Source: an uncultured SAR86 cluster bacterium (lineage in GTDB: Bacteria > Pseudomonadota > Gammaproteobacteria > Magnimaribacterales > AG-339-G14). From it: a stretch of 64,000 bases of DNA. The DNA lies in contig CABZYK010000003.1 in NCBI GenBank assembly GCA_902529935.1, positions 64,787-128,786 of the forward strand. The letters run 5' to 3'. A model generated the notes under the pieces. The model did no database searches, was not told where the DNA came from, and saw only the letters and a list, made by a program, of their open reading frames with translations. Shown piece by piece: positions 31,394 to 57,173 of this stretch; within the stretch, counting starts at the first letter, position 1, and the number at the start of each line of letters is the position of its first letter. The translations under genes and the position numbers were made by a program.

Positions 31394-31399
31394 GAGAGA

Positions 31400-32077: not shown

Positions 32078-32106
32078 TTGACCCTCCTATAAATTAACTT
32101 AACTAA

Positions 32107-34501: not shown

Positions 34502-34719
34502 AGCAATATCTTTAAATAAGCTGTCCCAAAAAGCAATATAAGTTATTTTATGACAAGAAATCCCTTGTTAATTTTTGCCTTAAAAAACGTTCAATAGTCA
34601 GACATTGGCATACCTAGAGCAGGACTAAATCACCTTAAAGTACTCTCAGTGTTTAAGCCCAAAAAATTGTTACGCTGCGTCACTGGCTAAAAAAAAGATA
34701 TTCGGTAACATTTAAGTTT

Positions 34720-35223
34720 ATGGATACTACAATTTCAATAATCTTTTTCGTAGTTGGGATTTTCGCCTTCAGTTTCTTTTTAGATGTTATTACTAAGGGT
34801 AAGTATCTTCCAACTCAAAAGGAAAACGAAATTTTACTTCTCTGCGTATTCATACCCTTGATGAGTATTCTGATATGGATTCAGTTTGATAATTTCTATC
34901 TTATGAGTTGGAGCTACTTAATAGGATTTACTATTGTTTCTTCGATAGCTCTTGATGTGGTTTCCCACTTCATAACTATTTTTCTAGCAAAATACCTTAT
35001 TAAATCTAAAGAAGAAGAGATGGATGTTAAGGAAATAATGGATGGCATTCTGCAAGAGGGCAGAACCATTAAAGACCAAGGAACAGGAATCTATTTCAAG
35101 GTAGTGGGGAATAAATTACATACCAGCTATCCTATTCATACTGAAGCCGGCGGTGATCCAGATGTGTATTGGGCGTGGGAAAAGGCACAAGAAGGTTCAG
35201 ATACTTACCCTCCAGAAGATTAA
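34720..35223 (+). CDS. Membrane protein (3-4 TM) with a soluble C-terminal domain, unknown function
   Basis: Hydrophobic N-terminal two-thirds, clean ORF. Confidence 0.55.
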   Translation: MDTTISIIFFVVGIFAFSFFLDVITKGKYLPTQKENEILLLCVFIPLMSILIWIQFDNFYLMSWSYLIGFTIVSSIALDVVSHFITIFLAKYLIKSKEEEMDVKEIMDGILQEGRTIKDQGTGIYFKVVGNKLHTSYPIHTEAGGDPDVYWAWEKAQEGSDTYPPED

Positions 35224-35236
35224 TTATAATTAATCA

Positions 35237-35635
35237 ATGGATTTTAGTTTTTTTCTTTTTTTGTGCGTTGTCGCAGTCTGGCTTTATTACCCATCACAAT
35301 GGCTATTGGAATTATTTGGATATAAAAAATTTTTAGAAAGACAACGTATCTATTGGGAATTTATAAGATTAATAAACTGTTTAATCTTGCCAGCTTCTCT
35401 TATAAGTTTGTATCAATATATTTTTGGAGAATGGTCTATCTTTGGAGGATGGAATCTTGTGACAGAAGGCGATTTTACAAGGGGAGAAGTTAATGGGGTT
35501 TCCTTTGTTATAGCGTTAATAATAGTTCTAGTTATACCATTGATGAATTTTATTTTATCTTTGATGGTTTTGTTTCATTCTTACAAAAAAATAAAAAACC
35601 CTAAGAAAAATATATTCACTAGAGATAGCTATTAA
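35237..35635 (+). CDS. Membrane protein (132 aa), unknown function
   Basis: Three hydrophobic helices. It lies 13 nt after the preceding gene. Confidence 0.5.
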   Translation: MDFSFFLFLCVVAVWLYYPSQWLLELFGYKKFLERQRIYWEFIRLINCLILPASLISLYQYIFGEWSIFGGWNLVTEGDFTRGEVNGVSFVIALIIVLVIPLMNFILSLMVLFHSYKKIKNPKKNIFTRDSY

Positions 35636-35725
35636 CTTTTTTCAATTATGATTGTGGACAATTAATTAAACACCCACCTATGATTTTTTCTTTGTAACCT
35701 ATCTTCTACCAACATAAAAGAATTC

Positions 35726-37294
35726 TCAGAGTTTTCGGCATATAGATTTAATCTCTTCTAATTTTTCGTAGAAGCCATCAATTGAAAAAGACTCGTAGGG
35801 CATATCCATGAACGGGTACAAAGGATCGTCGATCGCTAATTTAAACGAAATCACTTCGCCGTAATCTTTGGCAAAATCAGGATTAATCCACGGCACAAAA
35901 AAACGAATGACATCAGGTCCTCCGGTACCTAGCTCTCTGCCAAATAAATTATAAAAAGTTAAGTTATGGGCTGTGAACGGATTTGCTAACTGAGTAAAGG
36001 GCGATGACGAGATAAATTTAGCCTCTCCTTGTGAGAGTTTATCAACTAAATTATTCAGCATGGTTTCGCCGTGAATCTCTCTTATGTCCATGAAATCTAA
36101 AGTTGATAAATGGAAAAAGGAAGCAACTTCTTCACAATCCTCTTTTGCGACAGCGAATTGTAAAATGTGTCCGGCTGCGCCAAATCCTTTAGTTTGCATG
36201 CCAACCGATTTTTTGGCTTTTTTTATCTCCCATTTAAGATCTTCTGGGGAAATAGGTAGTATATTTTCACCTTCAGAATAGTTAAATAAATAACCACCTT
36301 TAAGAAGATAATCGTCCAAATAATAAATCTTGTTACCAAAAACTTGACAGTCCTCAATATCACGCAGAAAAACCTGTAAAAAGTTTTCTTCCTGATTCGG
36401 AATGAAATGCAAACACTCTTCAGGAACTGCATAACGATTATCGTAATGTTGAACTAATTTTTCTTTGCTCAAGGCAAGCTCGCCATCAATAGATTCAAGA
36501 GAAGCTATGGTTTCAATATCAAACTGATCACAAAGGGTTAAACCTTGAGATCTAAGGGGATACATGATTTGTTGGATTTGTCTGGAATTTGGATATCTTT
36601 TGATCATTTCCCAAAACATACAGAAGTCATCCTGGTTTTCTGACATGTAATCTATCAGATAATTACGAGTGGGCTTGCTGACGGTAACACCGTACCAACT
36701 ATCTTCACCAAGTAGAGTGAGGTTAAGTTCATCAGGTGCTTGGCTGAGCCTCTCGACTAATTTATTTGAAACAATTTTTAGATGATAGGTATTGAGATCA
36801 GTCTTATAGGAAGAACAAGACTCCAATGGAATCATGTATTCAAAAATTTTGTTATTGCTTTTGTTAGGATCAAATTGACTCATTAAATCGTAATAGCGAT
36901 CAAACGATACGTACTCATCACTCAAAAATACAATCGGACAGTTTTTTTGCTCTAAGATATCGACTAGGTACTCATGCACAGGTTCTGCTAACTCTTTATC
37001 AGCTGAACTCAACCAAGATTCCAAAGCTAACGTATTCTTATACGGATCAATAAATAAGATATCACTGCGATCCTCATCAATATAAATTTCAACATCACTG
37101 CGCTGAAAAAAACGTTGGCGCATAATTTTTTCAGTTGTTTCTGAAAAGGGCCCTCTAAGGAACTCTCTAACCTCCGCTTCTTCTGCTTCTTCACTGGCAT
37201 TCATGATCGGCACGATATAAAAATGATGCAACACCATAAAGGAACTCATGATGATTAACGGAATGATTGCTAGATATTTCATGGGTTTCTCCAC
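35726..37294 (-). CDS. Hypothetical 522-aa protein with an N-terminal TM/signal anchor
   Basis: Long clean ORF with a 2-nt gap from the upstream 74-aa gene. No motif recognised. Confidence 0.65.
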   Translation of the reverse strand: MEKPMKYLAIIPLIIMSSFMVLHHFYIVPIMNASEEAEEAEVREFLRGPFSETTEKIMRQRFFQRSDVEIYIDEDRSDILFIDPYKNTLALESWLSSADKELAEPVHEYLVDILEQKNCPIVFLSDEYVSFDRYYDLMSQFDPNKSNNKIFEYMIPLESCSSYKTDLNTYHLKIVSNKLVERLSQAPDELNLTLLGEDSWYGVTVSKPTRNYLIDYMSENQDDFCMFWEMIKRYPNSRQIQQIMYPLRSQGLTLCDQFDIETIASLESIDGELALSKEKLVQHYDNRYAVPEECLHFIPNQEENFLQVFLRDIEDCQVFGNKIYYLDDYLLKGGYLFNYSEGENILPISPEDLKWEIKKAKKSVGMQTKGFGAAGHILQFAVAKEDCEEVASFFHLSTLDFMDIREIHGETMLNNLVDKLSQGEAKFISSSPFTQLANPFTAHNLTFYNLFGRELGTGGPDVIRFFVPWINPDFAKDYGEVISFKLAIDDPLYPFMDMPYESFSIDGFYEKLEEIKSICRKL

Positions 37295-37296
37295 AG

Positions 37297-37521
37297 TTAT
37301 TTTTTAATCGATACTCGATAGACAATTTCATCCACTACCGGCACGCCGTTAATCTTTTCCAACGTTGAACCGACTTTACTGCTCCTGTATTTTTTGACCA
37401 ATTCGCCATCTTGAAAACAGAACACCCAGGTCGATAGTGAATCCTCTTTAATGATCAGTTCAAAATAATTTCCTGACTCATAAAGCACTTTTGCATTTTC
37501 ATTGATCTTTATTTTTTTCAT
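37297..37521 (-). CDS. Hypothetical 74-aa protein
   Basis: ATG start embedded in an 8-bp inverted repeat (37519-37538). An operator-like site lies ~60 nt upstream. Confidence 0.5.
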   Translation of the reverse strand: MKKIKINENAKVLYESGNYFELIIKEDSLSTWVFCFQDGELVKKYRSSKVGSTLEKINGVPVVDEIVYRVSIKK

Positions 37522-37572
37522 GTAGTTTTGACTACATGTATACGATTAAGTTCTCGTGATCTTTCTTATGTG

Positions 37573-37587
37573 CGACTGATTATGTCG
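37573..37587. promoter_or_regulatory. Operator-like site 1: CGACT-GATTA-TGTCG (one arm mismatch)
   Basis: It shares the 14-mer GATTATGTCGTTAA with site 2 at 54108-54121. On the minus strand the spacer reads CATAAT (-10-like). Confidence 0.6.
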
Positions 37588-37610
37588 TTAACAGAATTTA
37601 GGATGTACAG

Positions 37611-37736
37611 ATGATTGCTGAGAGAATGAACAAATACAAGCAGCTAGCCTTTAACTGTATTCTAGGTTGGCTGATCAACGACATCTGGTCATTTATTGAA
37701 AGAGAGGATTTCCCTGAGGAATTAAAAAAAATCTGA
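37611..37736 (+). CDS. 41-aa ORF that is probably the 5' part of the downstream gene (separated by a +1 frame change at an A8 tract)
   Basis: AGGA lies 7 nt upstream of the ATG. The ORF ends just after AAAAAAAA (37724-37731). The +1 frame is open from 37726 into the 37795 ORF. Confidence 0.4.
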   Translation: MIAERMNKYKQLAFNCILGWLINDIWSFIEREDFPEELKKI

Positions 37737-37794
37737 ACAGCAATTCAGGAACCGTCTCGAAGAAATTCAGTCTCTAGCAAAGACACTTAAAAAA

Positions 37795-38556
37795 TTGAGA
37801 CAACTTAATTTTGAATCACTTCTCTACTCAAATCTGCTCGATGAAGATACGGCTATTACCATAAAAAAAGCCGATCAATTAGCAAACATAGATATCAAGC
37901 ATTTAGAAATCGCACAAATTAAAGAATGTTATGAAAACGATATCATCCTTGAAGAAGAAAAATGGTTGGATCGAGTTAAGCCCTTCATTTCTGAGCAAAG
38001 TCCGAGATATATCGAAAATATGTTTAATACGAGAATAAACAGTTGGTATAAAAAACACATCAATTTGCTGACCTTTATGGACGAAGCTCCCCAAAGTCAA
38101 TTATGGTCTGCGTTCAGTGAAATAGTCGTTGCTGGCCATCTCATTCAAGATTTAATCGATGACCAACTAAAAGAGCTCAGTTACTTTAAATACCTTGGCG
38201 ATCAACTAGCTAAAGATGGTTTTGATCTCAAGTCTCAGAAAACCAAAAACTACCTAGAGTTTGAATTCAACTCCACAACTGATCACTTGCGCTCCATCAA
38301 AGATTTTTTTTCTTACTTAGAAAAAGATTACACCAAAATATCATTCGAAGAATTTATGGAGCGATTTAACGGTTTAGAGAAATTACTCCGAAGATGGCAG
38401 GCTGTAGGGATTGTGTCTGCACAAAAAGCTCTTGAACTTGTTAATCAAGAACCTTATCCAAAAATAGATTTTTTTGATTTAGATCAATCTTTTATCGATG
38501 AAGTTAAAGAGCCCAAAAAATGGTACGTTGATGTCAATCAAAGCGTTCTTGTCTGA
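37795..38556 (+). CDS. Hypothetical 253-aa protein (listed start is TTG; probably the 3' part of a frameshifted or slippage-dependent gene)
   Basis: There is no ATG or SD near 37795. The frame is open upstream to 37726. See the related finding. Confidence 0.5.
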   Translation: MRQLNFESLLYSNLLDEDTAITIKKADQLANIDIKHLEIAQIKECYENDIILEEEKWLDRVKPFISEQSPRYIENMFNTRINSWYKKHINLLTFMDEAPQSQLWSAFSEIVVAGHLIQDLIDDQLKELSYFKYLGDQLAKDGFDLKSQKTKNYLEFEFNSTTDHLRSIKDFFSYLEKDYTKISFEEFMERFNGLEKLLRRWQAVGIVSAQKALELVNQEPYPKIDFFDLDQSFIDEVKEPKKWYVDVNQSVLV

Positions 38557-38558
38557 TA

Positions 38559-38945
38559 TCAGTTCCAGCGATAGCTAGCTAGATCTTCCTTAATTTCAAG
38601 CAGCTTTGCCAAATCGGAATTTTTACCGCCTTCTTCTAGGTGCATATCAAAATCAAAATAAACCTCGTCGTTTATTTTTACGAAGACGAGGTCGGTTTCA
38701 ATGCCCTCCAAATTCCAAGTTACTTCAAAAAAACCTTCCGGAAGTTCTTTTGAACTCTCCAAGGATGCAGATTCAAAGAGAAGACCGATAATATCGAGCT
38801 CTTCAGTCATCTTTATCATTGACCGAGAATACATTCTTGGAAAGTTGTAACGAAAAAAACTTCGGATATCGTATCTATGCACATAAAAAAGGTACATAAC
38901 GCCGAGGATAATGATTTGAATGCCGTAAAATTCGTGATCTGTCAT
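38559..38945 (-). CDS. Hypothetical 128-aa protein with one N-terminal TM helix
   Basis: IQIIILGVMYLFYV helix. A 4-nt overlap with the upstream gene. Confidence 0.5.
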   Translation of the reverse strand: MTDHEFYGIQIIILGVMYLFYVHRYDIRSFFRYNFPRMYSRSMIKMTEELDIIGLLFESASLESSKELPEGFFEVTWNLEGIETDLVFVKINDEVYFDFDMHLEEGGKNSDLAKLLEIKEDLASYRWN

Positions 38946-39437: not shown

Positions 39438-39460
39438 GCTCAAATAATAGGACTTATGAA

Positions 39461-39475
39461 CGACAAAATATGTCG
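39461..39475. promoter_or_regulatory. Operator-like site 3: CGACA-AAATA-TGTCG (perfect arms) in a divergent intergenic region
   Basis: It lies between the minus-strand 83-aa gene and the plus-strand nuclease gene. Like sites 1 and 2, it is preceded by TTATG. Confidence 0.6.
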
Positions 39476-39536
39476 CATTTATTTTTTAAATAAATCTTAA
39501 AGGGTTTTTTTGATAATATTAGTTGTGGAGTAATAG

Positions 39537-40346
39537 ATGGCGAGGCATAGAGGAGTATACGATCCAAATAATCCTGAACCTTATGAATTGAGTCGTTCAC
39601 GTATAGAAGCTTTCATTAATTGTCCTGCTTGCTTTTGGATGGATAGGGTTAAAGGCATAAAGTTTCCAGGAATGCCTGGTTTCTTGCTCAATACTGCTAC
39701 CGATACCCTCTTAAAAAAGGATTTTGATAAATATAGAGCCTTAAAAAAACCGCATCCACTGATGGAATCATACGGTTTGGGGCATCTAGTTCCTTTTGCT
39801 CACGAAGATTTTGAAACTTGGACAAAATCACTTCAATTGGGCTTGAGAACATATTTCAAAGAAGAGAATCTATTGATTGGGGGAGGTTTAGACGATGTCT
39901 GGCATGATAGATTCAAAGACGAAATATTTATTGTTGATTATAAGAGTACTGCAGGACGAAGAAATGCAGATAAAACCGCATTGGAACCAATCAGTTTAAA
40001 CGGTGCCTATAAAGAAAGTTATAAAAGACAGATGGATGTTTATCAATGGATCATGCGAAAAAACGGTTTCAAAGTAAGTAATAAAGGCTATTTTCTTTAT
40101 GTCAACGGAGATCAACATTTTGAAGACGGCATGTTAGATGATGATCCTATGAAAGCGACCATGAAATTTGACGTCCAGTTACTAGAATACAACGGAGATG
40201 ATTCTTGGGTAGAAGATACTATAAAAGAAATATCGAAGTGTTTAAAAAGCTCAGAATGTCCTGATCACTCTATGAACGGCTTTGGTCCGAAGGGCGATCA
40301 GCCCTGTGAGTACCTGATCTTTTTAGACGGAGTCAAGAAAATCTAA
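39537..40346 (+). CDS. PD-(D/E)XK nuclease, Cas4 / RecB-family type with a probable 4-Cys Fe-S cluster
   Basis: GGAG lies upstream of the ATG. N-terminal CPACFW, GGLDDVW (Asp), IVDYKS (D/E-x-K), QMDVYQW (Q..Y), and C-terminal C..CPDH...C. Confidence 0.75.
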   Translation: MARHRGVYDPNNPEPYELSRSRIEAFINCPACFWMDRVKGIKFPGMPGFLLNTATDTLLKKDFDKYRALKKPHPLMESYGLGHLVPFAHEDFETWTKSLQLGLRTYFKEENLLIGGGLDDVWHDRFKDEIFIVDYKSTAGRRNADKTALEPISLNGAYKESYKRQMDVYQWIMRKNGFKVSNKGYFLYVNGDQHFEDGMLDDDPMKATMKFDVQLLEYNGDDSWVEDTIKEISKCLKSSECPDHSMNGFGPKGDQPCEYLIFLDGVKKI

Positions 40347-40476
40347 TGAGGTTCAATCTAGGGCCCTCAGAAAATAGAACACTTCATAAAAATATCACAT
40401 AGGAATTAGATACCTATATTTCTCTATAATTTAAATAAATTGGAAATAATGAAAGAATTTGATAAAAAATAATCAT

Positions 40477-43400
40477 ATGAGTTGGTTTTTAGAAAGAGAT
40501 AGAGCCGATTTTCTTGAAAAGGAAGTTAAATCGTCTATAGATAGAAAAAAACAGGAAGTGAATAGGAATATCACTTATAAAGATCATGTAAATATCCTCA
40601 CTGAATTTATGGATCAAGGGTATATTCACGAAAATTTTTTAATAAATGTAATATGGTTTTTTCATAGATGTAGATTAGATCAATCGTATTCAAACATTTT
40701 AGAATCATTCATTGAGAATTTTCAAAAGGCAGTTGAGTTACAAAAGGCAATTGAAACTGAAGCGCCTTCTTCAGGTAGTGGAGATTTTTTAGCATACACC
40801 AATACGCTTATTAACATCTTTACTTTAGAATTCCAGCAAAATCGATTGGACACTCCCTCTATAGCTTCCTGCCTCTCGGCTGAAGAAAAAGATAGGATAA
40901 ATAAAAAAATTACAGATTTTGAAGAAATATCTTTTCTGAACGAAAAAGCAGGATACTTAGATAAGACTAAGCAGATGAAAATTTTAGAAAAATTCTCGAA
41001 AAGTTCACATTTTGAGAAAGTATCGTATCAACTTGACTTTTTAATGGACATTGCGACCGGCTCAGGAGATGAATCAACTATTGCTGAAGCTCCTCTAAAC
41101 TACTTACTAGAAGAAAATGATGTAATTTCAGATGATTATGGAATATTTGGTTTAGTTGATGATGTTTATGCGATATCAGAGAGTTATTACAAATTAAGAA
41201 ATAGGAATGATCTAGGTCGACTCGTACAAAGCTTTAATCATGAACATGAAAATTTTTATATTCCCAATCTTCAGGATGAGAATAAACCTATATCTTTAGT
41301 TAATGTTGAAGATATAGTAAAAGCCGCGCTGGCAAAGGAAAATGAAGATTATTTTAAGCGGCTCCTTGTTCTCTCAGACATCGGACCTCTACCTATCTTC
41401 ATTGCTTTGGGAAAAGCAATAATTGAGAGACAAAAGCACTCTCACTTTGGTCAAGATGACGTGAAATTTGATTCTGGTGAAAATTTGGTCTTCTTTAATG
41501 AAAAGAATGATACAAGAATCGTAGCAACTTATGCGGGTAAGCGTGGCCAGGATTTTGATCAAAATTTATTATCAGATAACAAAGATGATGAGGTTTTAAA
41601 CGATATGTATGCATTATGGGTTGATAAGGAAAAAAGCTCCATACAGTATGTAACAGAAGCCTTCATAAAAACTGCAAAGCCTACTTCTAGACGTATTTCA
41701 ACAAAAAAAAATATATATAAATTCTTTAATTCTCTTGAGGAAAAACCTCTCAATCATTGGGCAAGGTATAACTTTCCTGAAGGCATTACATCAATTAGAC
41801 ATGAGAAAAAATTATTTATCCTTGGCCAAAAAAATAAAATTTTAGATTTCCTTGATTTAAATTTATTCAACAAATCAATCAAATCATGGTTAGGGCTAAG
41901 AGAATTTACTAAAGATGGGAAATGTATAAATCATGAACAACAAGCAAATCAATTATTTCCTGACCCCTATATATATCTTTTTGCTGACTCTGGAGCATTT
42001 ACCGATGCTCTTGAAAATCAATGGCATGAAACTTGCAGTGAAACTGAAAGATCAGAACCAGAATTAATAATTACATGTGAAGACAATTATTTAAGAGACG
42101 AATATCTTTTAGATACTTTAAAAAGATGTGAGGCTGATGTATTGGTTCTATCATCATTTATTAATAACTATGAAATAAATAAGACAGCTGCTAATGGTTT
42201 TGATCAGATACCAGTTAAGCCAAATGATTACCTATCAGACTTGAATATTAGTGGAATTGATCCTGTAAGTAGGTTTTTTAGTAGATCAAAAGATTTTAAA
42301 ATCTCTATTGAGAATACAAAAAATAATTTTATTGAAAACTTTTATTCTATTAGAAATCTTCTAAAAGATTTATTGTTGGAAGAGAGGCACAAATTTATCA
42401 AGCGTTGTCTTTATAGGATTATTGAAAATCTACAAAATAGAATACTGCCACTAAATGAAGAAGAAAAAGTAAATTTCCAAGAGAATTTTGAAATTCTATT
42501 AAATGAACTTCACGAAATAAGTGCTAATAATTCAAAAGTCAAAAGAGCAATAAATCTTTTGGCTGACTTAAAGCAAGATGCAGAAGATTTTCATAAATTT
42601 GAAGAAATTAAAGATTTTTGCATTAAAAACAATGAACTTAAGACAGTAATCCTTTGTCACAAAAGACAAAAAGAAAGGCTAAATTTTTTAATTTCTGAGG
42701 AAGGATTAAATGCCACGGCTGAGACCTTTACGAATCTTGAGAAGATAGAAATTGTAGGAAAAATCTTAGTTGCAATAGCTCAAAAAAGGGAAATTTCACA
42801 AAAACTAAAGATGTATCGTTATGCTCAGGAGATTTGTTTTCTTTTAAATGATGAAGAGCGAAAGAGTCACCTTAATACGCTCAAAAGGCTTGAAAAATAT
42901 TTTAATAATTATTTTCCTTCATCTGAGGTTAAAGAAGAAATAATAGAGGAAGTTGAGGATTTCAGTTCAAGTTTCACTGAAGAATCAATCGACTTTACCT
43001 ATACCGCTGCTAAATCAAAGTTCTCAGGAGAAGCTGATTCAAGTGTGGAAGCAAAAATGCTGCTTTTGGATGACGAACAGATTTATTTTTCCAGAAATAG
43101 AAGAGATGTCCTTTTCATATCCAGAAGAAGGGGGGATTCGATAGAATATGGCAAAACTGAAGATTTACTATCGGGAGATAAAATTGTGATCTCGGAAGAA
43201 TTCAGTGGCAATGAAATTTTACATCTTTTAATGAATAAAGAAGAAAAATTGAAATATCCTGAATTAGAAGGGCAAGCTCAAATTTGGCAGGATAAGTTAA
43301 AAGAGTATAAAAATGAAAATCATATGGACATATATCAATTAACTGCAGCTTTAAAGGACAATGGAGTTGATAGACATTTCGCTACGGTAAGAAATTGGCT

Positions 43401-43716
43401 AAGTGACCCAGAAACAATTTCGCCTAGGTCTTTTTTTGATCTTCAACAAATTTTTAAACTAGTTGGGGAAAAAGATTCTAAAGTTTTTTATGATTGTAAA
43501 AATAAAGGAAAAGAAGTTTATAGACTGAGAAATGAATGTAAAAAAAGGCTTTTAGAAAAGCTTCAAGATGTTCGGTTTGATGTTGATCAAGATGAAATCT
43601 CATTGATTATTAATGAAAAGCAGATTTCCTTTGGTGTTTATGAGATTAATGCTACTAAAGATATAGTTGTGGAATCATCTCATTTACACAAAATACAAAA
43701 TCTAGATCAGTTCTAA
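40477..43716 (+). CDS. Orphan 1080-aa protein (a DrmE-like role is possible by context only)
   Basis: The ATG at 40477 is preferred over the TTG at 40459. No NTPase or nuclease motif recognised. The segment YLLEENDVISDDYGIFGLVDDVYAI resembles the DUF1232 motif. The stop overlaps the next start (TAATG). Confidence 0.7.
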   Translation: MSWFLERDRADFLEKEVKSSIDRKKQEVNRNITYKDHVNILTEFMDQGYIHENFLINVIWFFHRCRLDQSYSNILESFIENFQKAVELQKAIETEAPSSGSGDFLAYTNTLINIFTLEFQQNRLDTPSIASCLSAEEKDRINKKITDFEEISFLNEKAGYLDKTKQMKILEKFSKSSHFEKVSYQLDFLMDIATGSGDESTIAEAPLNYLLEENDVISDDYGIFGLVDDVYAISESYYKLRNRNDLGRLVQSFNHEHENFYIPNLQDENKPISLVNVEDIVKAALAKENEDYFKRLLVLSDIGPLPIFIALGKAIIERQKHSHFGQDDVKFDSGENLVFFNEKNDTRIVATYAGKRGQDFDQNLLSDNKDDEVLNDMYALWVDKEKSSIQYVTEAFIKTAKPTSRRISTKKNIYKFFNSLEEKPLNHWARYNFPEGITSIRHEKKLFILGQKNKILDFLDLNLFNKSIKSWLGLREFTKDGKCINHEQQANQLFPDPYIYLFADSGAFTDALENQWHETCSETERSEPELIITCEDNYLRDEYLLDTLKRCEADVLVLSSFINNYEINKTAANGFDQIPVKPNDYLSDLNISGIDPVSRFFSRSKDFKISIENTKNNFIENFYSIRNLLKDLLLEERHKFIKRCLYRIIENLQNRILPLNEEEKVNFQENFEILLNELHEISANNSKVKRAINLLADLKQDAEDFHKFEEIKDFCIKNNELKTVILCHKRQKERLNFLISEEGLNATAETFTNLEKIEIVGKILVAIAQKREISQKLKMYRYAQEICFLLNDEERKSHLNTLKRLEKYFNNYFPSSEVKEEIIEEVEDFSSSFTEESIDFTYTAAKSKFSGEADSSVEAKMLLLDDEQIYFSRNRRDVLFISRRRGDSIEYGKTEDLLSGDKIVISEEFSGNEILHLLMNKEEKLKYPELEGQAQIWQDKLKEYKNENHMDIYQLTAALKDNGVDRHFATVRNWLSDPETISPRSFFDLQQIFKLVGEKDSKVFYDCKNKGKEVYRLRNECKKRLLEKLQDVRFDVDQDEISLIINEKQISFGVYEINATKDIVVESSHLHKIQNLDQF

Positions 43717-45440
43717 TGTTAACGCTCATTCCTCAATATCAACCTAAAAAAGATAACAAAGGAAAAATGATTCCTAAAGCAGAAGTGAGCTTTTTTGAAA
43801 CAATAAAAAAACAAAAGGATCAATTAAATGAGTGGATGGTTTTTTGGAATATTCATATTGATGAGCATCTTTCAAAGCAAGATGGTCAAGTTGATTTTAT
43901 TTTTCTTGGGAAAAAAGGGCTGTTCGTTGTCGAGGCTAAAGGTGGAGATAGTTACGTTGTAAAAGGAAATAAACATTATTATTTTTACAAATCCCAAGGA
44001 ATGAATTCTGATTATGCGCAAAATGAATCCGCCTTAACTCAGGCAGAAGGAAATATGCGTTCTATCGAGAATTATATAAGAAACAAAATACCCACAACTA
44101 AGGTCAATATTAAGAAACGAGTTATTGGATTTGGAGCTGTTCTTCCATTTATCGATACCACTAATATTGATTCAGGAATTCAATTTAACAGTGGACAAAT
44201 TTATGGGTCTCAATCAACAAGCATCTCAGATTTTCTTGATTTTTTAATAAAGCATAGCAAGGCAAAACTGCAAGGAGAAAGAGAGCAATTTTCGGACTCT
44301 GAGTTAAACGTAATTAGAAACCATCTTCAAATTGAAATGAAATGCGTCAGTAAATTTTATCTTTCTCAATCTGAACATAATGAAATTATGATGCTAGAAA
44401 GCAATCAACAAACTCTGGCAAGCTATTTTTTATCTAAATCTCACTCAAGATTTTTAATTGAAGGCGGGGCAGGAACTGGAAAAACAGTTTTAGCAAAGTA
44501 TTTTGCACACAGCTTAATTAATGATAACAAAAAAGTTTTATGGATTTCCTTCAATAAGTTGTTTACTGAGCATATAAAAGAATATTTTGGCGATATTGGC
44601 AAAATTGAAATTATTTCAGCTACAAAATTTAAAATGAACATAATTAAACAAAATACTGGACAAATAGTCACGACCGGTGTTGAAGACAATGATTTTGATA
44701 AAAAATTTCTTGAAGCTGCAAGTATGGATAAAGACTCTTTAGATTATGACTTCATTATTATGGATGAAGCACAAGATATCCTCAGTGGTGATTTTTTTTG
44801 GGGGATGGACGAATTAATAAAGGGAGGATTTGATGAATCATCATGGGCAATTTTCTTAGACTCTGAATCGCAAGCACATGTATTCAACCGCCTAGATCGC
44901 GATGCTTTGCAGCATTGCAAGCAAAAATCTGATTTTGAAGAATCACTTATTGAGAACTATAGAAATCCTAGAAAAATTGTAAAAAATTTATATGAATATT
45001 TGGGAAAAGAACCACCTGAAGCTAAAAGAGAATTTGAAGGAGAGATTATAGAAAAAAAAGTACAAGAATCTTTGGAAAAAACCCTTTTGAATATAGTAAA
45101 AAAAGAGGACAAACCAGTTGTTCTATCTACAGTAGCGGAAATTAAATTTTTTGGAGATAAGTTTGATAATAAGAAATTTTTTGAGTTAAGCAATGAAAAA
45201 TATTTTCTACAATCTCTCGGAAATGAAAAAATAAGCCAAACAGTTTTAAGAAATTACGATACAAGAAAAGCTAAACCCATAGAAGCAACAAACATTCATA
45301 CCTTTAAGGGACTAGAAAGTGAAGTGATTATTCTCGTGATTGATAAAGAAGAACTCGAAGAGAAAAGAGAAGAGTTCTCTTATCGATACTATACTGGATT
45401 ATCCAGAACATTGGGAAAAGCATATTTAGTATTAACTTAA
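43716..45440 (+). CDS. NERD-domain nuclease-like + SF1 (UvrD-like) helicase fusion
   Basis: N-terminal NERD pattern (QVDFIFLGKKGLFVVEAKGG), Walker A GGAGTGKT, Walker B IIMDEAQD, NYRNP, and C-terminal IHTFKGLESEVIILV. Confidence 0.8.
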   Translation: MLTLIPQYQPKKDNKGKMIPKAEVSFFETIKKQKDQLNEWMVFWNIHIDEHLSKQDGQVDFIFLGKKGLFVVEAKGGDSYVVKGNKHYYFYKSQGMNSDYAQNESALTQAEGNMRSIENYIRNKIPTTKVNIKKRVIGFGAVLPFIDTTNIDSGIQFNSGQIYGSQSTSISDFLDFLIKHSKAKLQGEREQFSDSELNVIRNHLQIEMKCVSKFYLSQSEHNEIMMLESNQQTLASYFLSKSHSRFLIEGGAGTGKTVLAKYFAHSLINDNKKVLWISFNKLFTEHIKEYFGDIGKIEIISATKFKMNIIKQNTGQIVTTGVEDNDFDKKFLEAASMDKDSLDYDFIIMDEAQDILSGDFFWGMDELIKGGFDESSWAIFLDSESQAHVFNRLDRDALQHCKQKSDFEESLIENYRNPRKIVKNLYEYLGKEPPEAKREFEGEIIEKKVQESLEKTLLNIVKKEDKPVVLSTVAEIKFFGDKFDNKKFFELSNEKYFLQSLGNEKISQTVLRNYDTRKAKPIEATNIHTFKGLESEVIILVIDKEELEEKREEFSYRYYTGLSRTLGKAYLVLT

Positions 45441-45456
45441 GCTTAATATTAAATGC

Positions 45457-47400
45457 CTAGATGTTGAGAAAATACCCTTTTGCATTTTCTGAATCTTCTG
45501 TAAGCAAATTTCTATCTAATAGGATATTTTTTGGAAACGAACAGCACGCTAAATCTGGGACCATAAGACAAGCGTGGCAACCCGCCAAATTCATGCCATT
45601 TAAAGCCTGACCTTTTGAATCGCTACAAATTGGGTCATTGGAACAAAACCTAGAATTTTCGATAGCATTATGTAAAAGATTTTCAAATAATTCTGGTTTA
45701 ATCATTCTAACCAACCCCCCTAATGATCCAGACGAGTCTGCAGATGCCGTGTAAATTAATAATCCTGCCATTTTTTTTTCCTTACTGTAATAAATTCTTT
45801 CTAGCAATTCTGTGATTCCGTAACCACATTCTGCTGCTAGTTGATTCATCAAAGAATGAGAAAATGAATGGATCATCACATAACCCGGATCAAATGATTC
45901 TGATCTGCTTAACTTTTCAAATAAAAAAGTATTTTTTGCGTTACTTTTTATTAAATTAGCTCTTTCAAGAAAATATGGATTTTCATCGAGCCAAGAGGAA
46001 ATTTTTTCATATCCAAAGTCTATAAAAATTCCTTCTCCTGTAACCTCGATACAAGGAAGAAAATCTACTAATTCTCTTGCAGCATTGAATTTTTCCTCTG
46101 GGGAGACACTACTAAGCGATTCTGCTTGACGTTCAAATCCCAACAAAGCAGTTGCCGTTTTGACTTTCTTTACCTGATGAAGGCTTGAGAAAAAATTAGA
46201 AATATTCTCATTCTTATAACTGTCTAAAGATATTTTAGATGCAATAAAATCATCGTCATCAACCTTATCTTGAATAAGAGTTTGATACTCTTTATAAAGA
46301 AAATCCTTATCAAGTTCCTCAGAATTAAGACGTTCGATTGGTTGCTCATATATCTTGCTGAAATGAGTAGTTATGATTTGGGTAGCTTGATCAAGATCTA
46401 AACTATATTGTTCATGTATCCCAGTATTATCCAGAGTATCCCTTAACGAATCCATTACATCAGGATTATCTAAAGCCTTATTTATAAACCTTGTTATTAA
46501 GTCATCATCCAGAAGGGGAGATCGTATACTCTCTGGATCTGGAACAAAAATTGCACTTTTATGAATTGGCAGATAAATTTTCGAAGCTCCTCTTGGTTGA
46601 ACATCAACAATCTCATCACATTTTTCACTGTCGCCTAGCCAAGGTCTTTTCCCATCACATGAAAATATTTTTCTGCCGTCTCTATCAAGAATTTCCTTTC
46701 TATTGTCAATTTTATTAATGCCAGTTAAAGGTTTTGACTTTCCACATTCAGCGCAAGTTATTCTTAAGCTAGAAAAACCTGCTCCAGTTCCATTATCATC
46801 TAAATAAAGAGATGGGCTATTGTGACTATGATTTTTTGTGAGCATTTTACATCCATCATCGCAACTTGTTGACATCAGCCTGTCCCAGTTAATATCTTGG
46901 ATGTGACCTTTCTGACAAAAAGATATGAATCTAACAGGCTCAGTTTTAGATCCCCATCGTGAATCGTTACAAGGTGAACCTTTTTTCCATTTAGGCAGTC
47001 TTGGGTTAGAACAACGTCTAGAGGTTGCAATTGGACTATGTTTCATCAAAGCATTACAGCTCATACAAATCGACCACTCAGGAAATATCGATACTGGTAT
47101 TTTTCCAGCTATAGGATGAAAAGAAGGCTGATATTGATCGTATTCAACTGGCGGTTCAACAAGTTTTCGTATATTAATATAGTGCCGAGGAGAGTTTTCA
47201 AAATTTTTAAGAACTATATTTAGGTAGTCAACGAACCTTTGATTGTTAATTTTTAAGTTATTTATCTTATCGGGAGTGAGATCCCATTTATCAACAGACA
47301 TTGTCATTCCAGGAAAGTCAACGTAGTCATAGGTCGCACCAACACCAAAGGTAGTAACTATTTGACTTCTTCTTAAATCATTATTGCTATTGAATGGCAT
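45457..47400 (-). CDS. drmB: DUF1998-domain protein, DISARM DrmB-like
   Basis: C-terminal Zn-type Cys cluster FCSNDPICS...GCHACLMVPDLACCSFPKNILLDRNLL is typical of DUF1998. A 14-nt overlap with the upstream helicase gene. Confidence 0.8.
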   Translation of the reverse strand: MPFNSNNDLRRSQIVTTFGVGATYDYVDFPGMTMSVDKWDLTPDKINNLKINNQRFVDYLNIVLKNFENSPRHYINIRKLVEPPVEYDQYQPSFHPIAGKIPVSIFPEWSICMSCNALMKHSPIATSRRCSNPRLPKWKKGSPCNDSRWGSKTEPVRFISFCQKGHIQDINWDRLMSTSCDDGCKMLTKNHSHNSPSLYLDDNGTGAGFSSLRITCAECGKSKPLTGINKIDNRKEILDRDGRKIFSCDGKRPWLGDSEKCDEIVDVQPRGASKIYLPIHKSAIFVPDPESIRSPLLDDDLITRFINKALDNPDVMDSLRDTLDNTGIHEQYSLDLDQATQIITTHFSKIYEQPIERLNSEELDKDFLYKEYQTLIQDKVDDDDFIASKISLDSYKNENISNFFSSLHQVKKVKTATALLGFERQAESLSSVSPEEKFNAARELVDFLPCIEVTGEGIFIDFGYEKISSWLDENPYFLERANLIKSNAKNTFLFEKLSRSESFDPGYVMIHSFSHSLMNQLAAECGYGITELLERIYYSKEKKMAGLLIYTASADSSGSLGGLVRMIKPELFENLLHNAIENSRFCSNDPICSDSKGQALNGMNLAGCHACLMVPDLACCSFPKNILLDRNLLTEDSENAKGYFLNI

Positions 47401-50400
47401 CTTGAGTTTGTTCGTTTTTAACTATTTCTACTTGTAAATCAGAATTTCGCATACTTGTTGGAGCAGAAAAAACAGCACCCTCACCAACAGGAAATCCAGG
47501 GTCAAAAAGTCTCGTGTCAGATGGTCTTCCTCCCATTTTACCCCATTCATCAATATTGCCAGATTTTTTCCAACGATCCTTAATTCTCTTTAATTCATTT
47601 TTTACCATATCAAGCTCTTCCGGATCTGATTTTTTTACTGAATCTAGAATCCAATCTTCAGCTAATTTAAATCTTTCCTTGTCTTCTTTTTCACTATAAG
47701 TGGGATTATTTATATCTTTCCCAAAACTTAAAACAAGTGAAGCAAAAATTGCAGGCAAACCTCGTTTTCTGGCTCCCGAAGAGAAGGGTGTAACACTCAC
47801 AGTCTCAACATATCTATAGATAGACTGATGATAATTTTTAAACATTTCATAAATAGATCTATCTTTGGATTTTGCATGATTAAAAATAGTTACAACTAAA
47901 CCGGGATTTCTTCGCCCTACTCGTGAAGAAGCTTGAATGTATTCCGCAGTAGTTTTAGGCTGACCATGAACTAACATAAGGCCTAGTCTTGGGATATCTA
48001 CCCCCACTGAAATCATATTTGTTGCTAATAAAATATCTATTCCTTTAACTGTATCTTCGGCGCTTCTAAAAGTTTGAGTCCAAGGAATATTGATTTCTTC
48101 TAAGATGCTTTCTATTTCATCTTGACTTCTTCTGCCGGTCAATTCTCTTATCTTTTTAATTTGTCTCGAGAACCTTGTGAGCTTATCATCAACAGATCCA
48201 AATTTCCCTCTGTTAAAATTTTTTGCATTTCTTCTTAAGGAAGCATTGAGATTTTGTTTCTGATTGCTCATGTAGGCTAGCTCTCTTTTACTGTTGAAAT
48301 ACCATACGGCAGTTCCAAAGGGATCAAAAGACATCTCTTTTGAAGTTGGCAAAGGATATATAGTGTCTCCTTCCGCTAAGTTATGATTAAATTTTTCTTT
48401 TAAACCTAATTTAAATCCTAGTTCATCAGCTTTTTCTATATAGCTTATATCGTATTTAGCGACTTCCTTTCCATCGTAAAAAGTAAAGCTACTATCTTCT
48501 TTCAACGATGATAGTGGAGAGACGTAAAGATGATCAACTCCTTTCTTGACTTTTGATTTAGTCATTGGAAGTATGTCATTTGGGCTCTGAAGTAATGGAA
48601 TTGCTGCTGAAACGGAAGACTCAATCATAGAACCTTTCGAAGAGCCAAAATAACCCATATAAATCCTACCTGGTACATCCTTGGTATCTCTCTCAGTAGC
48701 AAAAAAAGAATCTTCCCAATCAATTACTTGCGGGGGGAAAATATTGGATCTCCTACCGCGGTAAAGAGATTTAGCCTGATCACCCGAAAAAGTAAGAGTA
48801 GCTGAAGCACCAACTATTTTCGGTATCTGATTTTCAGTTGACATTAGTTTCATGACAACATTTTCAAATAAACCAACCATAGTTCCTAGAGGTCCAGAAA
48901 TTAAATGAAGTTCATCCTGAATTATCATCTCTGGAGGATCGTATTGGTCATTTTTAATTAACTCTATGGCCTCTTTTCGCCAACATAATTTAGCAAAGTT
49001 ATCTACAGTCCCCAGAAGCAAAGTTGGCTTTTCTTGAAAAATTGATTCTTCCCATAAGAACACGGGCAATTCTTCATAGAAAATACATTTTTTATCAGAA
49101 CACTTTATTATTGCCTTCCCCTGTCTGCGAACATAGCCTCTGTCATCTGGATGAGAAATTTTTGATTTACACCAAGGGCATTGATGAAGAACGAACTTAT
49201 AATTTCCTTGATCATCTTTACCAGATCGATCTTGACCATTTAATATTCTAATTGCATTTGCATGAGTATTTGGATTACCTTTTGAGCCTATCCAAAGTCC
49301 CAAAGATATCATTTTATCTCCTAGATTTAGATTTAGAATTCCATGTCTTCTGATAAATTCCAGAGCACAAATTAAAGCTGAAGATCTCCTAAATTGATCA
49401 GAAGTAAGTAATCTCAAGGTATATCTCATTAATGAAGTTACCCCAGCATTATTTGGATTTCTGAGTCTTCTTAATAAAATGTTGAAAGCAATCAAACCTA
49501 AATAAGCCTCAGTTTTTCCACCGCCAGTTGGAAACCAAATCAGATCTACTTGTTCTCTTAATTCAGAATATTCTTCTGGCTCTACTATTTCGGGCAATAT
49601 AGTAAGGATGAATGCTATTTGAAATGGTCGCCAACTTCCCTTTAGCCCTGTATGCTTTAAGTTCTTGAGTGATTCAATAAATTCAAGCTCTAATTCAAAA
49701 TTTTGATCCTGGTCTTTTTTAATAATTAGTTCTTCATCCTTATCTTTTTTTTCTAACTTATTTAAACGATTCATCTGAAGCAGCATTGCATGATTCATAA
49801 GTCTGAAGCATTTATCAGCCTCATCGTTTTTCTTAATCATATTTAATCCAACTTTCATTCTGCTTAAACATTCCCGAGCATTTGACAGATTTTTCTCAGC
49901 TATTTGCACGAAAGCATCATCCAAAGTATTTTTTTTGTTTTCTTGATCGTCTAGCCAATTTGAATAATTCTGAATAAGATCTTCTAAAGGTTGATATCTA
50001 CCGCTAGTATCTTCATCATTGAGATCGGCAAATTTACTCATGCTTAAATTATCTGAATCTAGTGCTTGTATGCTTTTTGTTTCAAAGGTTGGCACAAAAG
50101 AAGACGAAATAATTTTACAATCATTAGAATTATGATTTTCCTCCCAATCTGAGGCGCAACCCTTTCCAATTGCATAAGACCTCTTGTTTCTGAAAAGTAA
50201 ATCTAGAGTCTCTGCATTCTCTCCATATCCTGATTGGAATGGATTTTTTATAGGTAAAAAACCTGAATCTAGATTTTCTATTTTCATACCTACTTGATAA
50301 TAAATATCCTCTTCATTTTTGCTTTTATTAAACATGGAGATGGAACAAATAATTTTGTCTCTTTTTCTAAATACTTTTACCGAAATAGATAGGCTTTCAT

Positions 50401-50899: not shown

Positions 50900-50911
50900 A
50901 CTTAATAATAA

Positions 50912-54077: not shown

Positions 54078-54099
54078 GTCATAATTTTATAGTTTATGC

Positions 54100-54120
54100 T
54101 AACGACAGATTATGTCGTTA
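54100..54120. promoter_or_regulatory. Operator-like site 2: perfect 8-bp-arm palindrome TAACGACA-GATTA-TGTCGTTA upstream of the WYL regulator gene
   Basis: Centred 33 nt upstream of the ATG at 54077. On the minus strand it reads ...ACGACATAATCTGTCGT..., with a -10-like CATAAT inside the site. Confidence 0.75.
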
Positions 54121-54193
54121 AAATAATTTTTTCACATATTATCAATCAGATAGAAGATTGCCACTAAGATTACGAAAGCAATTAATCCAAGAG

Positions 54194-55446: not shown

Positions 55447-55448
55447 AT

Positions 55449-55481
55449 ATGACAATATATGTCATATGACAATTTATGTCA
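55449..55481. promoter_or_regulatory. Operator-like sites 4a/4b: two abutting palindromes ATGACA-ATATA-TGTCAT and ATGACA-ATTTA-TGTCA
   Basis: Read directly. They have the same half-site core and 5-nt spacer as sites 1-3, and lie in the divergent region between the DUF4258-like gene and the 513-aa gene. Confidence 0.6.
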
Positions 55482-55525
55482 AATATAATATTTGTTATAT
55501 GCTATAATAAAACATATAATAAATT

Positions 55526-57067: not shown

Positions 57068-57173
57068 AGAATACAGAAGGTGATTAAATAAGAAACCCCT
57101 AAAGTTTTGGGATTTCATTACGGAATATATTGACGCTTTAAGAATATTAAACAAAAAGTTGAGAAGAGGAATT

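Follow-up and report, generated by a model that had tools for sequence, protein, structure and literature searches.

The region from 39.46 to 54.12 kb of the window (the entire 64,000-nucleotide stretch of DNA analysed here, from an uncultured SAR86 cluster bacterium) is, with a probability that we put at roughly 80%, a single DISARM-type restriction-like defence system made up of two convergent operons, in which the PLD nuclease DrmC is missing and a NERD nuclease-helicase is the likely effector. On the plus strand, the first arm would start from a palindromic operator of the ACGACA-N5-TGTCG type, CGACAAAATATGTCG (39461-39475), and continue through genes for a 269-aa Cas4/RecB-type PD-(D/E)XK nuclease (39537-40346), a 1080-aa long-form DrmE-family protein (40474-43716) and a 574-aa protein that joins a NERD nuclease to a UvrD/Nhi-like SF1 helicase (43716-45440); all three open reading frames were found in the ORF list as originally predicted. 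On the minus strand, the second arm would be headed by another palindrome, CGACAGATTATGTCG (54103-54117), followed in order of transcription by a BrxR/CapW-like WYL-WCX transcription regulator (53079-54077; Pfam WCX 8.3e-17, WYL 4.9e-8), an RmuC-family protein (52176-53078; Pfam RmuC 8.4e-44), a C5 cytosine DNA methyltransferase in the DrmMII role (50912-52204), the YprA-like SF2 helicase DrmA (47387-50899) and DrmB (45457-47400). The DrmA and DrmB genes adjoin with a 14-nt overlap, and the earlier proposal that the plus-strand genes converge on this operon was confirmed, the ends of the NERD-helicase and DrmB genes lying 16 nt apart. Judged from gene order, the DrmA-DrmB block is inverted in the window relative to the single DrmE/NERD-helicase/DrmA/DrmB operon of its relatives, so that the system consists of two convergent arms.

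DISARM is a widespread anti-phage system. Its class 2 form (Ofir et al. 2018) comprises DrmA, DrmB, DrmC, DrmMII and sometimes DrmE (bioRxiv 10.1101/2021.12.28.474362; PMC9252829), and the window clusters DrmA (PADLOC 2.8e-186; Pfam Helicase_C 2.4e-9), an adjacent DrmB with DUF1998/MZB (PADLOC 5.8e-75; Pfam MZB 5.2e-9), a C5 cytosine methylase (Pfam DNA_methylase 1.3e-62) and a protein that is DrmE at the level of the DrmE_fam family. The methylase matches PADLOC DrmMII at 1e-48 and is outscored there by the generic MTase_II model (2.4e-81). A further likeness is that the operon of the window's relatives opens with DrmE, as does the canonical one. The window departs from canonical class 2, however, in the inverted DrmA-DrmB block, in a NERD-SF1 helicase gene placed between DrmE and DrmA, in the attached RmuC and WYL genes, and in the lack of DrmC: no PLD domain was detected by Pfam in the ORFs scanned from 35.7 to 59 kb, a set that took in every ORF of 150 aa or longer as well as several that are shorter, and the related loci L001-L010 and L050 likewise yielded no PLD DrmC. 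DrmC is known to be dispensable and often missing, and the effector of DISARM has been called 'a mystery' (PMC9142583). We conclude that the window system is a PLD-less variant of class 2 DISARM under predicted WYL control; no description of a PLD-less DISARM with a NERD-helicase was found in the literature searched.

The 1080-aa protein, called an orphan in the original prediction, belongs to a recognisable family. It scores 88.9 bits (2.6e-25) on NCBIfam NF038316 DrmE_fam, just over the cut-off of 80 bits, and a profile built from it finds 1,091 cluster representatives. It matched neither the NF038323 DISARM_DrmE equivalog nor any PADLOC DrmE model nor Pfam DrmE_C, and tools relying on the 2023 PADLOC DrmE models would probably under-call the locus. 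Pfam DrmE_C is matched by the homologue P0001 (46% identical to the window protein) and by short-form DrmE proteins, and the profile connects the long and short forms. The window DrmE thus differs from that of class 2 in falling within the broader family rather than the equivalog and in carrying an extra N-terminal region of roughly 250-390 residues, which the DrmE_fam model leaves uncovered. An upstream start at 40459 would yield 1085 aa, but homologues begin MSW(F/Y)L, so that translation of the 1080-aa protein probably starts at the ATG at 40474. Long-form DrmE has an N-terminal helical domain, a central SF2-helicase-like fold and a C-terminal DrmE_C-like region, and an AF2 model (pLDDT 71, pTM 0.51) was matched by Foldseek with Hef, RIG-I and XPB. 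The helicase-like core has no conserved ATPase motifs, and the columns that are invariant in 57 sequences (Y210, D216, D220, G226, D229, D230, W938, W975 and P984) all lie outside it. The role of DrmE still awaits study according to structural work on DISARM (PMC9142583); a model of moderate quality and the missing motifs make that of an adaptor possible.

Synteny among relatives ties DrmE to the NERD-helicase and both to DrmA and DrmB. The six nearest DrmE homologues are all followed by a NERD-helicase gene, with DrmA and DrmB next wherever the contig is long enough. Among the 13 informative DrmE lineages (14 in all), 11 have the NERD-helicase 3-115 nt after DrmE, and in 11 of the 13 the order DrmE, NERD-helicase, DrmA, DrmB forms a co-directional operon; a C5 methylase gene converges on it, and a PLD DrmC is absent. 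This order also holds in the distant short-form locus L050, where the genes overlap and are accompanied by a C5 methylase and Vsr. In terms of pairwise identity to the window proteins, the NERD-helicase tracks DrmE across loci (49/46, 34/31, 31/26 and 29/26%, respectively). In L027 and L034 the NERD-helicase is absent after DrmE and a different, 711-714-aa Nhi-like helicase is encoded elsewhere in the locus; the NERD-helicase partner is therefore replaceable. In the window, the predicted TAATG stop/start overlap of the two genes is present at 43714-43718 and indicates that translation of the NERD-helicase is coupled to that of DrmE. The proposal that the plus-strand genes supply the missing accessory part of DISARM accordingly holds, by family score and synteny, for DrmE and the NERD-helicase, and fails for the Cas4-like gene: the trio is not co-conserved in related loci, and the pair that is kept maps to an already described system, DISARM.

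The NERD plus UvrD-like SF1 architecture proposed for the 574-aa protein was borne out by Pfam (NERD 6.3e-10 plus SF1 helicase domains), and its family shows no variation in D60, E73, K75, the Walker A motif or DEAQD. Both marine Gammaproteobacteria and a Bacillota-like genome carry DrmC-less loci in which a NERD-helicase with intact catalytic residues consistently follows DrmE. From these sequence features, the NERD-helicase is likely to stand in for the PLD nuclease DrmC as effector, which makes it a concrete candidate for the DISARM effector and leaves DrmE a possible adaptor role. Under such a scheme, the Dcm-like methylase would mark host DNA; DrmA and DrmB, by analogy with class 1 structures, would load on unmodified invading DNA; DrmE, SF2-helicase-like and lacking conserved ATPase motifs, might serve as adaptor; and the NERD-SF1 helicase would translocate along the foreign DNA and cut it, taking over the role assigned to canonical DrmC. 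Alternatively, the true effector could be RmuC or host nucleases. The genes for the WYL regulator, RmuC and the methylase form one operon; RmuC stays with WYL in L001-4 and L024, where identity is 58%, and in L027, where it is 97%, and the C5 methylase is kept beside the DrmE/NERD/DrmA/DrmB block in relatives. PADLOC returned no significant match for RmuC, only weak ones to LmuB and DruC. Shield, an RmuC-domain defence (PMC10270631), likewise has an RmuC-family protein encoded in a defence locus, but the RmuC of the window differs in sharing an operon with a WYL gene and a methylase.

The operator-like site predicted in the promoter region of the plus-strand genes, CGACAAAATATGTCG, does lie there, 62 nt upstream of the Cas4-like ATG, and operator 2 precedes the WYL start codon by 26 nt. 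The motif CGACA-N5-TGTCG occurs exactly twice in the 64 kb, against 0.02 expected, and the same palindrome is found upstream of the DrmE operon in L001, L004, L009 and L011. WYL repressors of the BrxR type bind to inverted repeats whose halves are 5 bp apart (PMC9122601). The window regulator resembles BrxR/CapW in having WYL and WCX domains and in the placing of two such repeats, one ahead of its own gene and the other before the defence operon, an arrangement like that of R-BOX1 and R-BOX2 of BrxR (PMC9122601). It differs from BrxR in its half-sites, which are 6 bp rather than 11 bp in operators that are here predicted, and in accompanying DISARM, which is absent from the main text of PMC9122601. 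The position of the operators predicts that the WYL protein is the repressor of both arms, and it would hold both promoters down through the ACGACA-N5-TGTCG sites until a ligand relieves repression. The operator pair offers a simple handle on the co-regulation of the two-arm system.

The 269-aa protein matches Pfam PDDEXK_1 (6.4e-7, above cut-off) and PADLOC Cas4 models (1.2e-6), and the PD-(D/E)XK motifs seen in it earlier proved invariant across 16 homologues (D120, D134-Y-K136, Q165 and Y169). Five cysteines are likewise invariant in these homologues and are probable Fe-S cluster ligands; the three at the C-terminus (C235, C241 and C257) had been predicted correctly, but the N-terminus contributes two (C29 and C32) instead of one. 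The protein is thus like Cas4, AddB and AdnAB in its RecB-type motifs and cysteine ligands, and an AF2 model (pLDDT 74) gave as best Foldseek matches the AdnAB nuclease domains and Cas4 (AdnA/AdnB, type I-C Cas4 and SSO0001, probability 1.0). Canonical Fe-S nucleases of the Cas4/AddB kind have a C-terminal cysteine spacing of C-x2-C-x5-C, whereas here it is C-x5-C-x15-C with an extra N-terminal cysteine. It also differs from CRISPR Cas4, reaching 17.7 of the 65 bits that the TIGR00372 cas4 model requires, and no cas genes, Cas1 and Cas2 included, were found among the neighbours of the gene in the window and seven other contexts.

Whether this nuclease belongs to the DISARM variant as a true accessory, for example by processing DNA ends under control of the same WYL repressor, has to be weighed, since operator 1 stands immediately upstream of its gene, no terminator is predicted between it and DrmE, and it adjoins DrmE/DISARM in four lineages (the window, L002, L039 and L040). 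We consider this unlikely. The same kind of search returned 1,478 homologues of the Cas4-like protein at 64-93% identity against six of DrmE; in related marine bacteria the gene borders unrelated cargo, namely MoxR/VWA, RmuC plus PLD-SNF2, Dnd/BREX-like and type I R-M modules; most related DISARM loci do not have it as a neighbour, and it was not found upstream of DrmE in L001, L006-9, L025-26 or L031, nor in L027, a near-identical locus with the window's flanks and another DISARM allele; and its orientation relative to DrmE differs between loci. These contexts, which contradict the original grouping of the three plus-strand genes into one module, point to the Cas4-like nuclease being not a DISARM component but the product of a conserved gene on the border of a hot spot at which defence cassettes recombine. 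In the window it is the first gene downstream of operator 1, between that operator and DrmE. Set side by side, the window and L027 are a natural case of uncultured marine bacteria exchanging a defence cassette while the locus itself stays fixed.

Four proteins are met repeatedly on the borders of islands whose cargo is unrelated: the Cas4-like nuclease, RmuC, a UDG-like protein and the WYL regulator. A broader and rather unlikely proposal is that these four make up a conserved, WYL-controlled 'docking frame', which would place any inserted cassette under a repressor that senses DNA damage or infection and, through the Cas4-like nuclease, would actively favour cassette exchange; the clean allele swap between the window and L027 would then be explained. 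A less radical component of this proposal is that the NERD-SF1 helicase, recruited by the pseudo-helicase DrmE, would be the long-sought effector nuclease of PLD-less DISARM in at least five phyla.

It is very unlikely that the NERD-helicase is an autonomous single-gene defence of the Nhi/AbiO kind, riding in DISARM operons but mechanistically separate from them. Nhi-type nuclease-helicases reportedly work by themselves, and with Nhi, AbiO and the NERD+UvrD candidates of PADLOC the window protein shares its domain layout, in which a nuclease of the PD-(D/E)XK type at the N-terminus is joined to an SF1 helicase. RTasNERD-Hel was its best full-length PADLOC model (4.2e-20), followed by C3a187 (NERD+UvrD; 4.5e-10), Nhi (1.6e-9) and AbiO (4.7e-9), the last two matches being confined to the helicase part (residues 210-545 for Nhi). 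Substitution by another helicase at other positions in L027 and L034 would also fit autonomy, as would a Rhizobium plasmid on which the NERD-helicase comes after DrmB rather than before DrmA. Known Nhi and AbiO proteins, however, work alone or with a reverse transcriptase, whereas the window's sits in, and is coupled to, a DISARM operon; the slot between DrmE and DrmA is fixed, with overlapping or tightly spaced genes, in lineages whose DrmE is 24-46% identical to the window's and in L050; divergence of the NERD-helicase parallels that of DrmE; and adjacency to DrmA/DrmB is kept in five phyla. Extremely improbable is the suggestion, raised originally, that the Cas4-like, 1080-aa and NERD-helicase genes constitute an independent, unnamed nuclease-helicase system merely abutting DISARM, since, although in the window the three lie on one strand with a common promoter region and the PADLOC NERD-helicase models come from other systems (DRT-associated, Nhi and AbiO), the 1080-aa protein is a DrmE_fam member, relatives co-transcribe DrmE, NERD-helicase, DrmA and DrmB, and the Cas4-like gene is not co-conserved with the other two.

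The PLD-less DISARM reading can be set beside 'DISARM-like' cassettes that Bell et al. mention (eLife 2024, PMC11090510; bioRxiv 10.1101/2025.09.15.676423), leaving their composition to a 'forthcoming publication'. Both have split DrmA/DrmB-type YprA helicases with non-canonical partners, but Bell et al. name NERD solely for TALON, which represents another YprA clade with other partners. The NERD-helicase also adjoins DrmA/DrmB on Rhodococcus, Deinococcus and Rhizobium plasmids, in the inspected stretches of which no PLD gene is annotated, and the Rhodococcus protein is a full-length homologue of the window's (hhalign 3.6e-33). McrC-like (DUF2357) and Vsr genes are neighbours on the Deinococcus and Rhizobium plasmids, a setting that fits the McrBC-associated cassette of Bell et al.

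Three open reading frames on the plus strand were confirmed with the sizes originally predicted (269, 1080 and 574 aa), encoding a Cas4-like PD-(D/E)XK nuclease (39537-40346), DrmE (40459/40474-43716; 1085/1080 aa) and a NERD nuclease-SF1 helicase fusion (NERD-helicase; 43716-45440). The ATG at 40474 is favoured as the DrmE start because homologues begin MSW(F/Y)L, and the TAATG in which the DrmE stop codon overlaps the NERD-helicase start was present as described; the NERD-helicase gene ends 16 nt from the stop codon of the convergent DrmB gene. The original prediction had treated these genes as one module, either the missing part of the adjacent DISARM system or an independent nuclease-helicase system. 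DrmE and the NERD-helicase are, with a probability that we place at roughly four in five, integral DISARM components, and the Cas4-like gene does not share this assignment; the prediction was partly confirmed as an observation and partly supported as an interpretation.

The 1080-aa protein proved not to be the orphan it had been called: it matched the DrmE family model NF038316 at E = 2.6e-25 and 88.9 bits, above the curated cut-off of 80, and NCBIfam was the only one of four collections (Pfam, PADLOC, PHROGs and NCBIfam) to recognise it. PADLOC, which did recognise DrmA and DrmB and gave weak Cas4 matches, returned no match for it, nor did PHROGs, and in Pfam nothing passed E <= 0.01, while relaxing the limit to E <= 1 added just one DUF1232 match of chance level (E = 0.27); a 46%-identical homologue (P0001) was above threshold for Pfam DrmE_C. 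When a seven-sequence DrmE profile was searched against 1.84 billion representatives, 1,091 proteins were recovered at E <= 0.001, and these split into a long form of ~1,050-1,130 aa, the window type, scoring 69-150 bits on NF038316, and a short form of ~840-880 aa, scoring 324-375 bits with a DrmE_C match in addition. The narrower equivalog model NF038323 was reached by none of the tested DrmE proteins, including that of the window. Against plasmids, tblastn with DrmE gave no match, and the short-form protein P0310 gave a single weak match in Nostoc.

An AlphaFold2 model of DrmE of moderate quality (pLDDT 71, pTM 0.51) had three parts, which were helical at the N-terminus, two-lobed alpha/beta in the centre and beta-plus-helical at the C-terminus, and the best solved matches to the central part were SF2 helicases (Hef at 3.4e-7, then RIG-I/MDA5 and XPB). 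The only residues invariant in a 57-sequence alignment were Y210, D216, D220, G226, D229, D230, W938, W975 and P984, every one of which falls outside the helicase-like core (~residues 290-810), an arrangement that leads us to read DrmE as a putative helicase-like protein lacking ATPase motifs. Residues ~205-235 hold the sole invariant block of the long-form N-terminal extension, DV(I)PDxLGxLGLVDDxY, which resembles the DUF1232 (YkvA-like) motif, although the Pfam matches are weak (E = 0.27 in the window protein, 0.00034 at best among homologues).

The 574-aa protein was assigned a NERD domain (6.3e-10) plus SF1 helicase domains by Pfam, in agreement with the original description, and because the NERD triad (D60/E73/K75), Walker A, DEAQD and late helicase motifs are invariant across nine family members, both its nuclease and helicase activities are predicted to be intact. 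A NERD-helicase of 560-584 aa lies immediately after DrmE in all six nearest homologues, and wherever their contigs continue, DrmA and DrmB come next in the same orientation, and a C5 methylase gene is convergent with them. A genome scan with a DrmE alignment yielded two loci, one in a SAR86 single-cell genome and one in a genome from the Woeseiaceae, and a metagenome scan with a 15-sequence alignment yielded 21 more. De-duplication at 80% identity left 14 lineages, 13 of them with sequence downstream of DrmE, and the NERD-helicase follows DrmE by 3-115 nt in 11 of these 13; the pair co-occurs, and the trio of the original prediction is not kept together. The two exceptions, loci L027 and L034, carry a different Nhi-like P-loop helicase of 711-714 aa elsewhere in the locus. 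The 714-aa helicase of L027 was considered as a divergent NERD-helicase orthologue and rejected, as it aligns to the NERD-helicase profile at the P-loop only. In the window, the convergent minus-strand arm comprises DrmB (5.8e-75), DrmA (2.8e-186), the C5 methylase, RmuC and a WYL-WCX regulator; the window departs from its relatives in a single respect, the inversion of the DrmA-DrmB block, which places this block at the end of the WYL-RmuC-methylase operon, 12 nt separating methylase and DrmA.

The association extends to the short form of DrmE and to other phyla. Locus L050, set among Bacillota-like neighbours on a contig of 632 kb, has overlapping genes in the order DrmE (845 aa), NERD-helicase (580 aa), DrmA and DrmB, followed by a convergent C5 methylase and Vsr. 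On three plasmids representing three further phyla, Rhodococcus opacus pROB02 (L051), Deinococcus gobiensis P4 (L052) and Rhizobium rhizogenes pC5.7d (L053), the NERD-helicase directly adjoins DrmA/DrmB, with a C5 methylase and/or Vsr nearby in each; the Rhodococcus protein is a full-length NERD-helicase homologue (hhalign 3.6e-33, 527 columns), and the 507-aa protein encoded upstream of it had no significant similarity to DrmE (hhalign E = 0.23). McrC-like DUF2357 and/or Vsr genes were also among the neighbours on each of the three plasmids. A PLD domain, as in the DrmC nuclease of canonical DISARM, was absent from the scanned island ORFs of the window and from the related loci, L050 included, and no PLD gene was annotated in the inspected stretches of the three plasmids. 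The first three DrmA plasmids inspected (Bacillus cereus, Photobacterium and B. toyonensis) carried accessory genes of other kinds and lacked a NERD-helicase, so that not every DrmA/DrmB locus has this partnership.

Locus L027 has 93% DNA identity to the window up to 39437 and 83% from 50934 on, with RmuC and WYL proteins 97% and 100% identical, respectively. Between these shared flanks lies another DISARM allele, in which DrmE, DrmA and DrmB are 27%, 47% and 42% identical to those of the window, neither the Cas4-like gene nor the NERD-helicase is present, and the divergent 714-aa Nhi-like helicase is accompanied by an MvaI/BcnI-type endonuclease. The difference between window positions 39438-50934 and L027 positions 595-13164 represents a natural cassette exchange.

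The nuclease assignment of the 269-aa protein was upheld by an above-cut-off match to Pfam PDDEXK_1 (6.4e-7), by weak matches to several PADLOC Cas4 models and by an AlphaFold2 model (pLDDT 74, pTM 0.75) whose best solved matches were the nuclease domains of AdnA/AdnB, type I-C Cas4, SSO0001, RecE, lambda exonuclease and AddB. The predicted PD-(D/E)XK residues (D120, D134-Y-K136, Q165 and Y169) are invariant in 16 homologues, as are the cysteines, which number five (C29, C32, C235, C241 and C257) rather than the one N-terminal and three C-terminal originally listed. This protein had 1,478 homologues, the best 120 of which were 64-93% identical; the same kind of search with DrmE found six, at <= 46% identity. 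The neighbourhoods of the Cas4-like gene were all defence islands with varied cargo: a MoxR-like AAA_5 and DUF2201 pair adjoining the core genes UvrB and PurL (L013-15); RmuC with a PLD-SNF2/type ISP-like pair or an SNF2 helicase (L016-18); a UvrD-like helicase, a uracil-DNA glycosylase (UDG)-like protein, SLFN/DndB, SNF2, PAPS reductase and BrxC (L044-47); and type I R-M, NucS and DUF4011 (L048). A WYL regulator lies within 5 kb of the gene in L013-18.

The Cas4-like gene adjoins DISARM in four lineages: the window; L002, in which it shares the DrmE strand and precedes a UDG-like gene; and L039 and L040, in which it is divergent from DrmE. It is not beside DISARM in L001, L006-9, L025-26 and L031. 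The slot between operator and DrmE is variable: the window has the Cas4-like gene there, L001-4, L011, L023 and L024 have a 237-aa gene of UDG-superfamily type, L002 has both and L009 has neither. Given the varied cargo, the variable slot and, most tellingly, the absence of the gene from L027, we conclude that it is not part of DISARM; rather, it is one member of a frame that recurs at island edges, the others being WYL, RmuC, the UDG-like gene and a small p85-like gene. A single three-gene module was accordingly rejected, the Cas4-like gene being unlinked to DrmE and the NERD-helicase in most relatives, and the missing-part reading held for the latter two only. The upstream genes of L001 (237 aa) and L006 (310 aa), also considered as Cas4-like, were unrelated to the Cas4-like protein. 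In L044-47, a 611-aa UvrD-like helicase gene (4485-6320 in L044) lies directly 3' of the Cas4-like gene. The UDG-like gene (236-237 aa; e.g., L001 369-1082) matches PF03167 weakly (E = 0.0018) and recurs at 74% identity in L044 (6329-7039), an island of Dnd/BREX-like rather than DISARM type, where it again lies downstream of the Cas4-like gene. Small OGFr_N-like proteins are encoded near the island edge in L044 (2883-3326) and L011 (3094-3663), in the latter between two operator copies.

Class 2 DISARM consists of DrmA, DrmB, DrmC (PLD), DrmMII and sometimes DrmE (PMC9252829; bioRxiv 10.1101/2021.12.28.474362). DrmC is dispensable and often missing, the degradation step has been called 'a mystery', and DrmE is said in the same structural paper to need study (PMC9142583). 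Bell et al. refer to 'many uncharacterized DISARM-like classes' and to one DISARM-like cassette associated with McrBC, the composition being given for neither (PMC11090510; bioRxiv 10.1101/2025.09.15.676423), and mention NERD for TALON only, a system different from the DISARM of the window. Full-text literature searched for DISARM, DrmA/DrmB and NERD in combination yielded nothing further. The components and their family names are known; the DrmE-NERD-helicase partnership and its substitution for DrmC we could not find described in the literature searched. For the question of the DISARM effector, the NERD-helicase offers a useful and testable lead. In the mechanism that we propose, the C5 methylase would mark self DNA, DrmA/DrmB would detect the ends of unmodified foreign DNA, an analogy drawn from the class 1 structure (PMC9142583), DrmE would bridge DrmA/DrmB to the NERD-helicase, the NERD-helicase would unwind and cut the foreign DNA, and WYL would repress both arms; our confidence in these details is lower than in the DISARM membership of DrmE and the NERD-helicase.

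An MvaI/BcnI-type endonuclease gene (Pfam 5e-57) lies next to the methylase in L027 (11991-13166) and L030 (11073-12254), and Vsr mismatch endonuclease genes occur in L050 (21194-21634) and on the L051-L053 plasmids; the window contains neither type. These neighbours point to a CCWGG-type specificity and suggest that the methylase may recognise a Dcm-like motif; CCWGG methylation has been reported for the DrmMII of class 2 (bioRxiv 10.1101/2021.12.28.474362). They also suggest that a complete type II R-M system is embedded in DISARM in some loci.

The palindrome CGACA-N5-TGTCG occurs twice in the 64 kb (0.02 copies expected by chance; two matches reached in 0 of 100 shuffles). One copy (39461-39475) precedes the Cas4-like ATG by 62 nt, and the other (54103-54117) precedes the WYL start codon by 26 nt. 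Its extended form, ACGACA-N5-TGTCGT, was also found upstream of the DrmE operon in L001 and L004, in two copies in L011, and in L009 128 nt before DrmE with no intervening gene. WYL regulators of the BrxR type act as repressors and recognise inverted repeats whose half-sites are 5 bp apart, one located at the regulator's own promoter and another elsewhere in the island (PMC9122601), and the window likewise has a palindrome with a 5-nt spacer before the WYL gene and before the other arm. The position and conservation of the operator lend good support to the prediction that the WYL protein controls both arms together. The two-arm arrangement is a neat regulatory layout, and we regard the whole as a DISARM variant rather than a new kind of system. 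A promoter scan gave fewer sigma-70-like sites than shuffled sequence and no convincing placement.

With the looser motif GACA-N5-TGTC, a further pair of sites appeared in tandem (55451 and 55468), flanked by two other operons of the island. These palindromes, TGACAAT(A/T)TATGTCA at 55451-55463 and 55468-55480, share the GACA-N5-TGTC core of the DISARM operator and may belong to the same regulon or a related one; to their left is a minus-strand operon of DUF4258 and ARPP-1 genes (54194-55455), and to their right a plus-strand operon encoding a 513-aa unknown and HD, NT5C and DUF6994 proteins (55526-58967). GC content is 30-32% over 40000-58000 and ~36-38% on the left, and core genes (DsbB, PolA and an EngB-like GTPase) begin again at 59.4 kb, where GC is 42%. 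The 64-kb window contains no tRNA gene and hence no tRNA-linked integration site. Immediately left of the island, 28807-38945 holds ORFs of 128-522 aa that lack Pfam and NCBIfam matches, except for a weak CsgG/LpoB-like lipoprotein (30128-31393). Farther left, a gene at 22614-23387 encodes a full-length Nmad3 domain (nucleotide modification associated domain 3; 2.2e-52) and adjoins CobW-like and DUF1826 genes.
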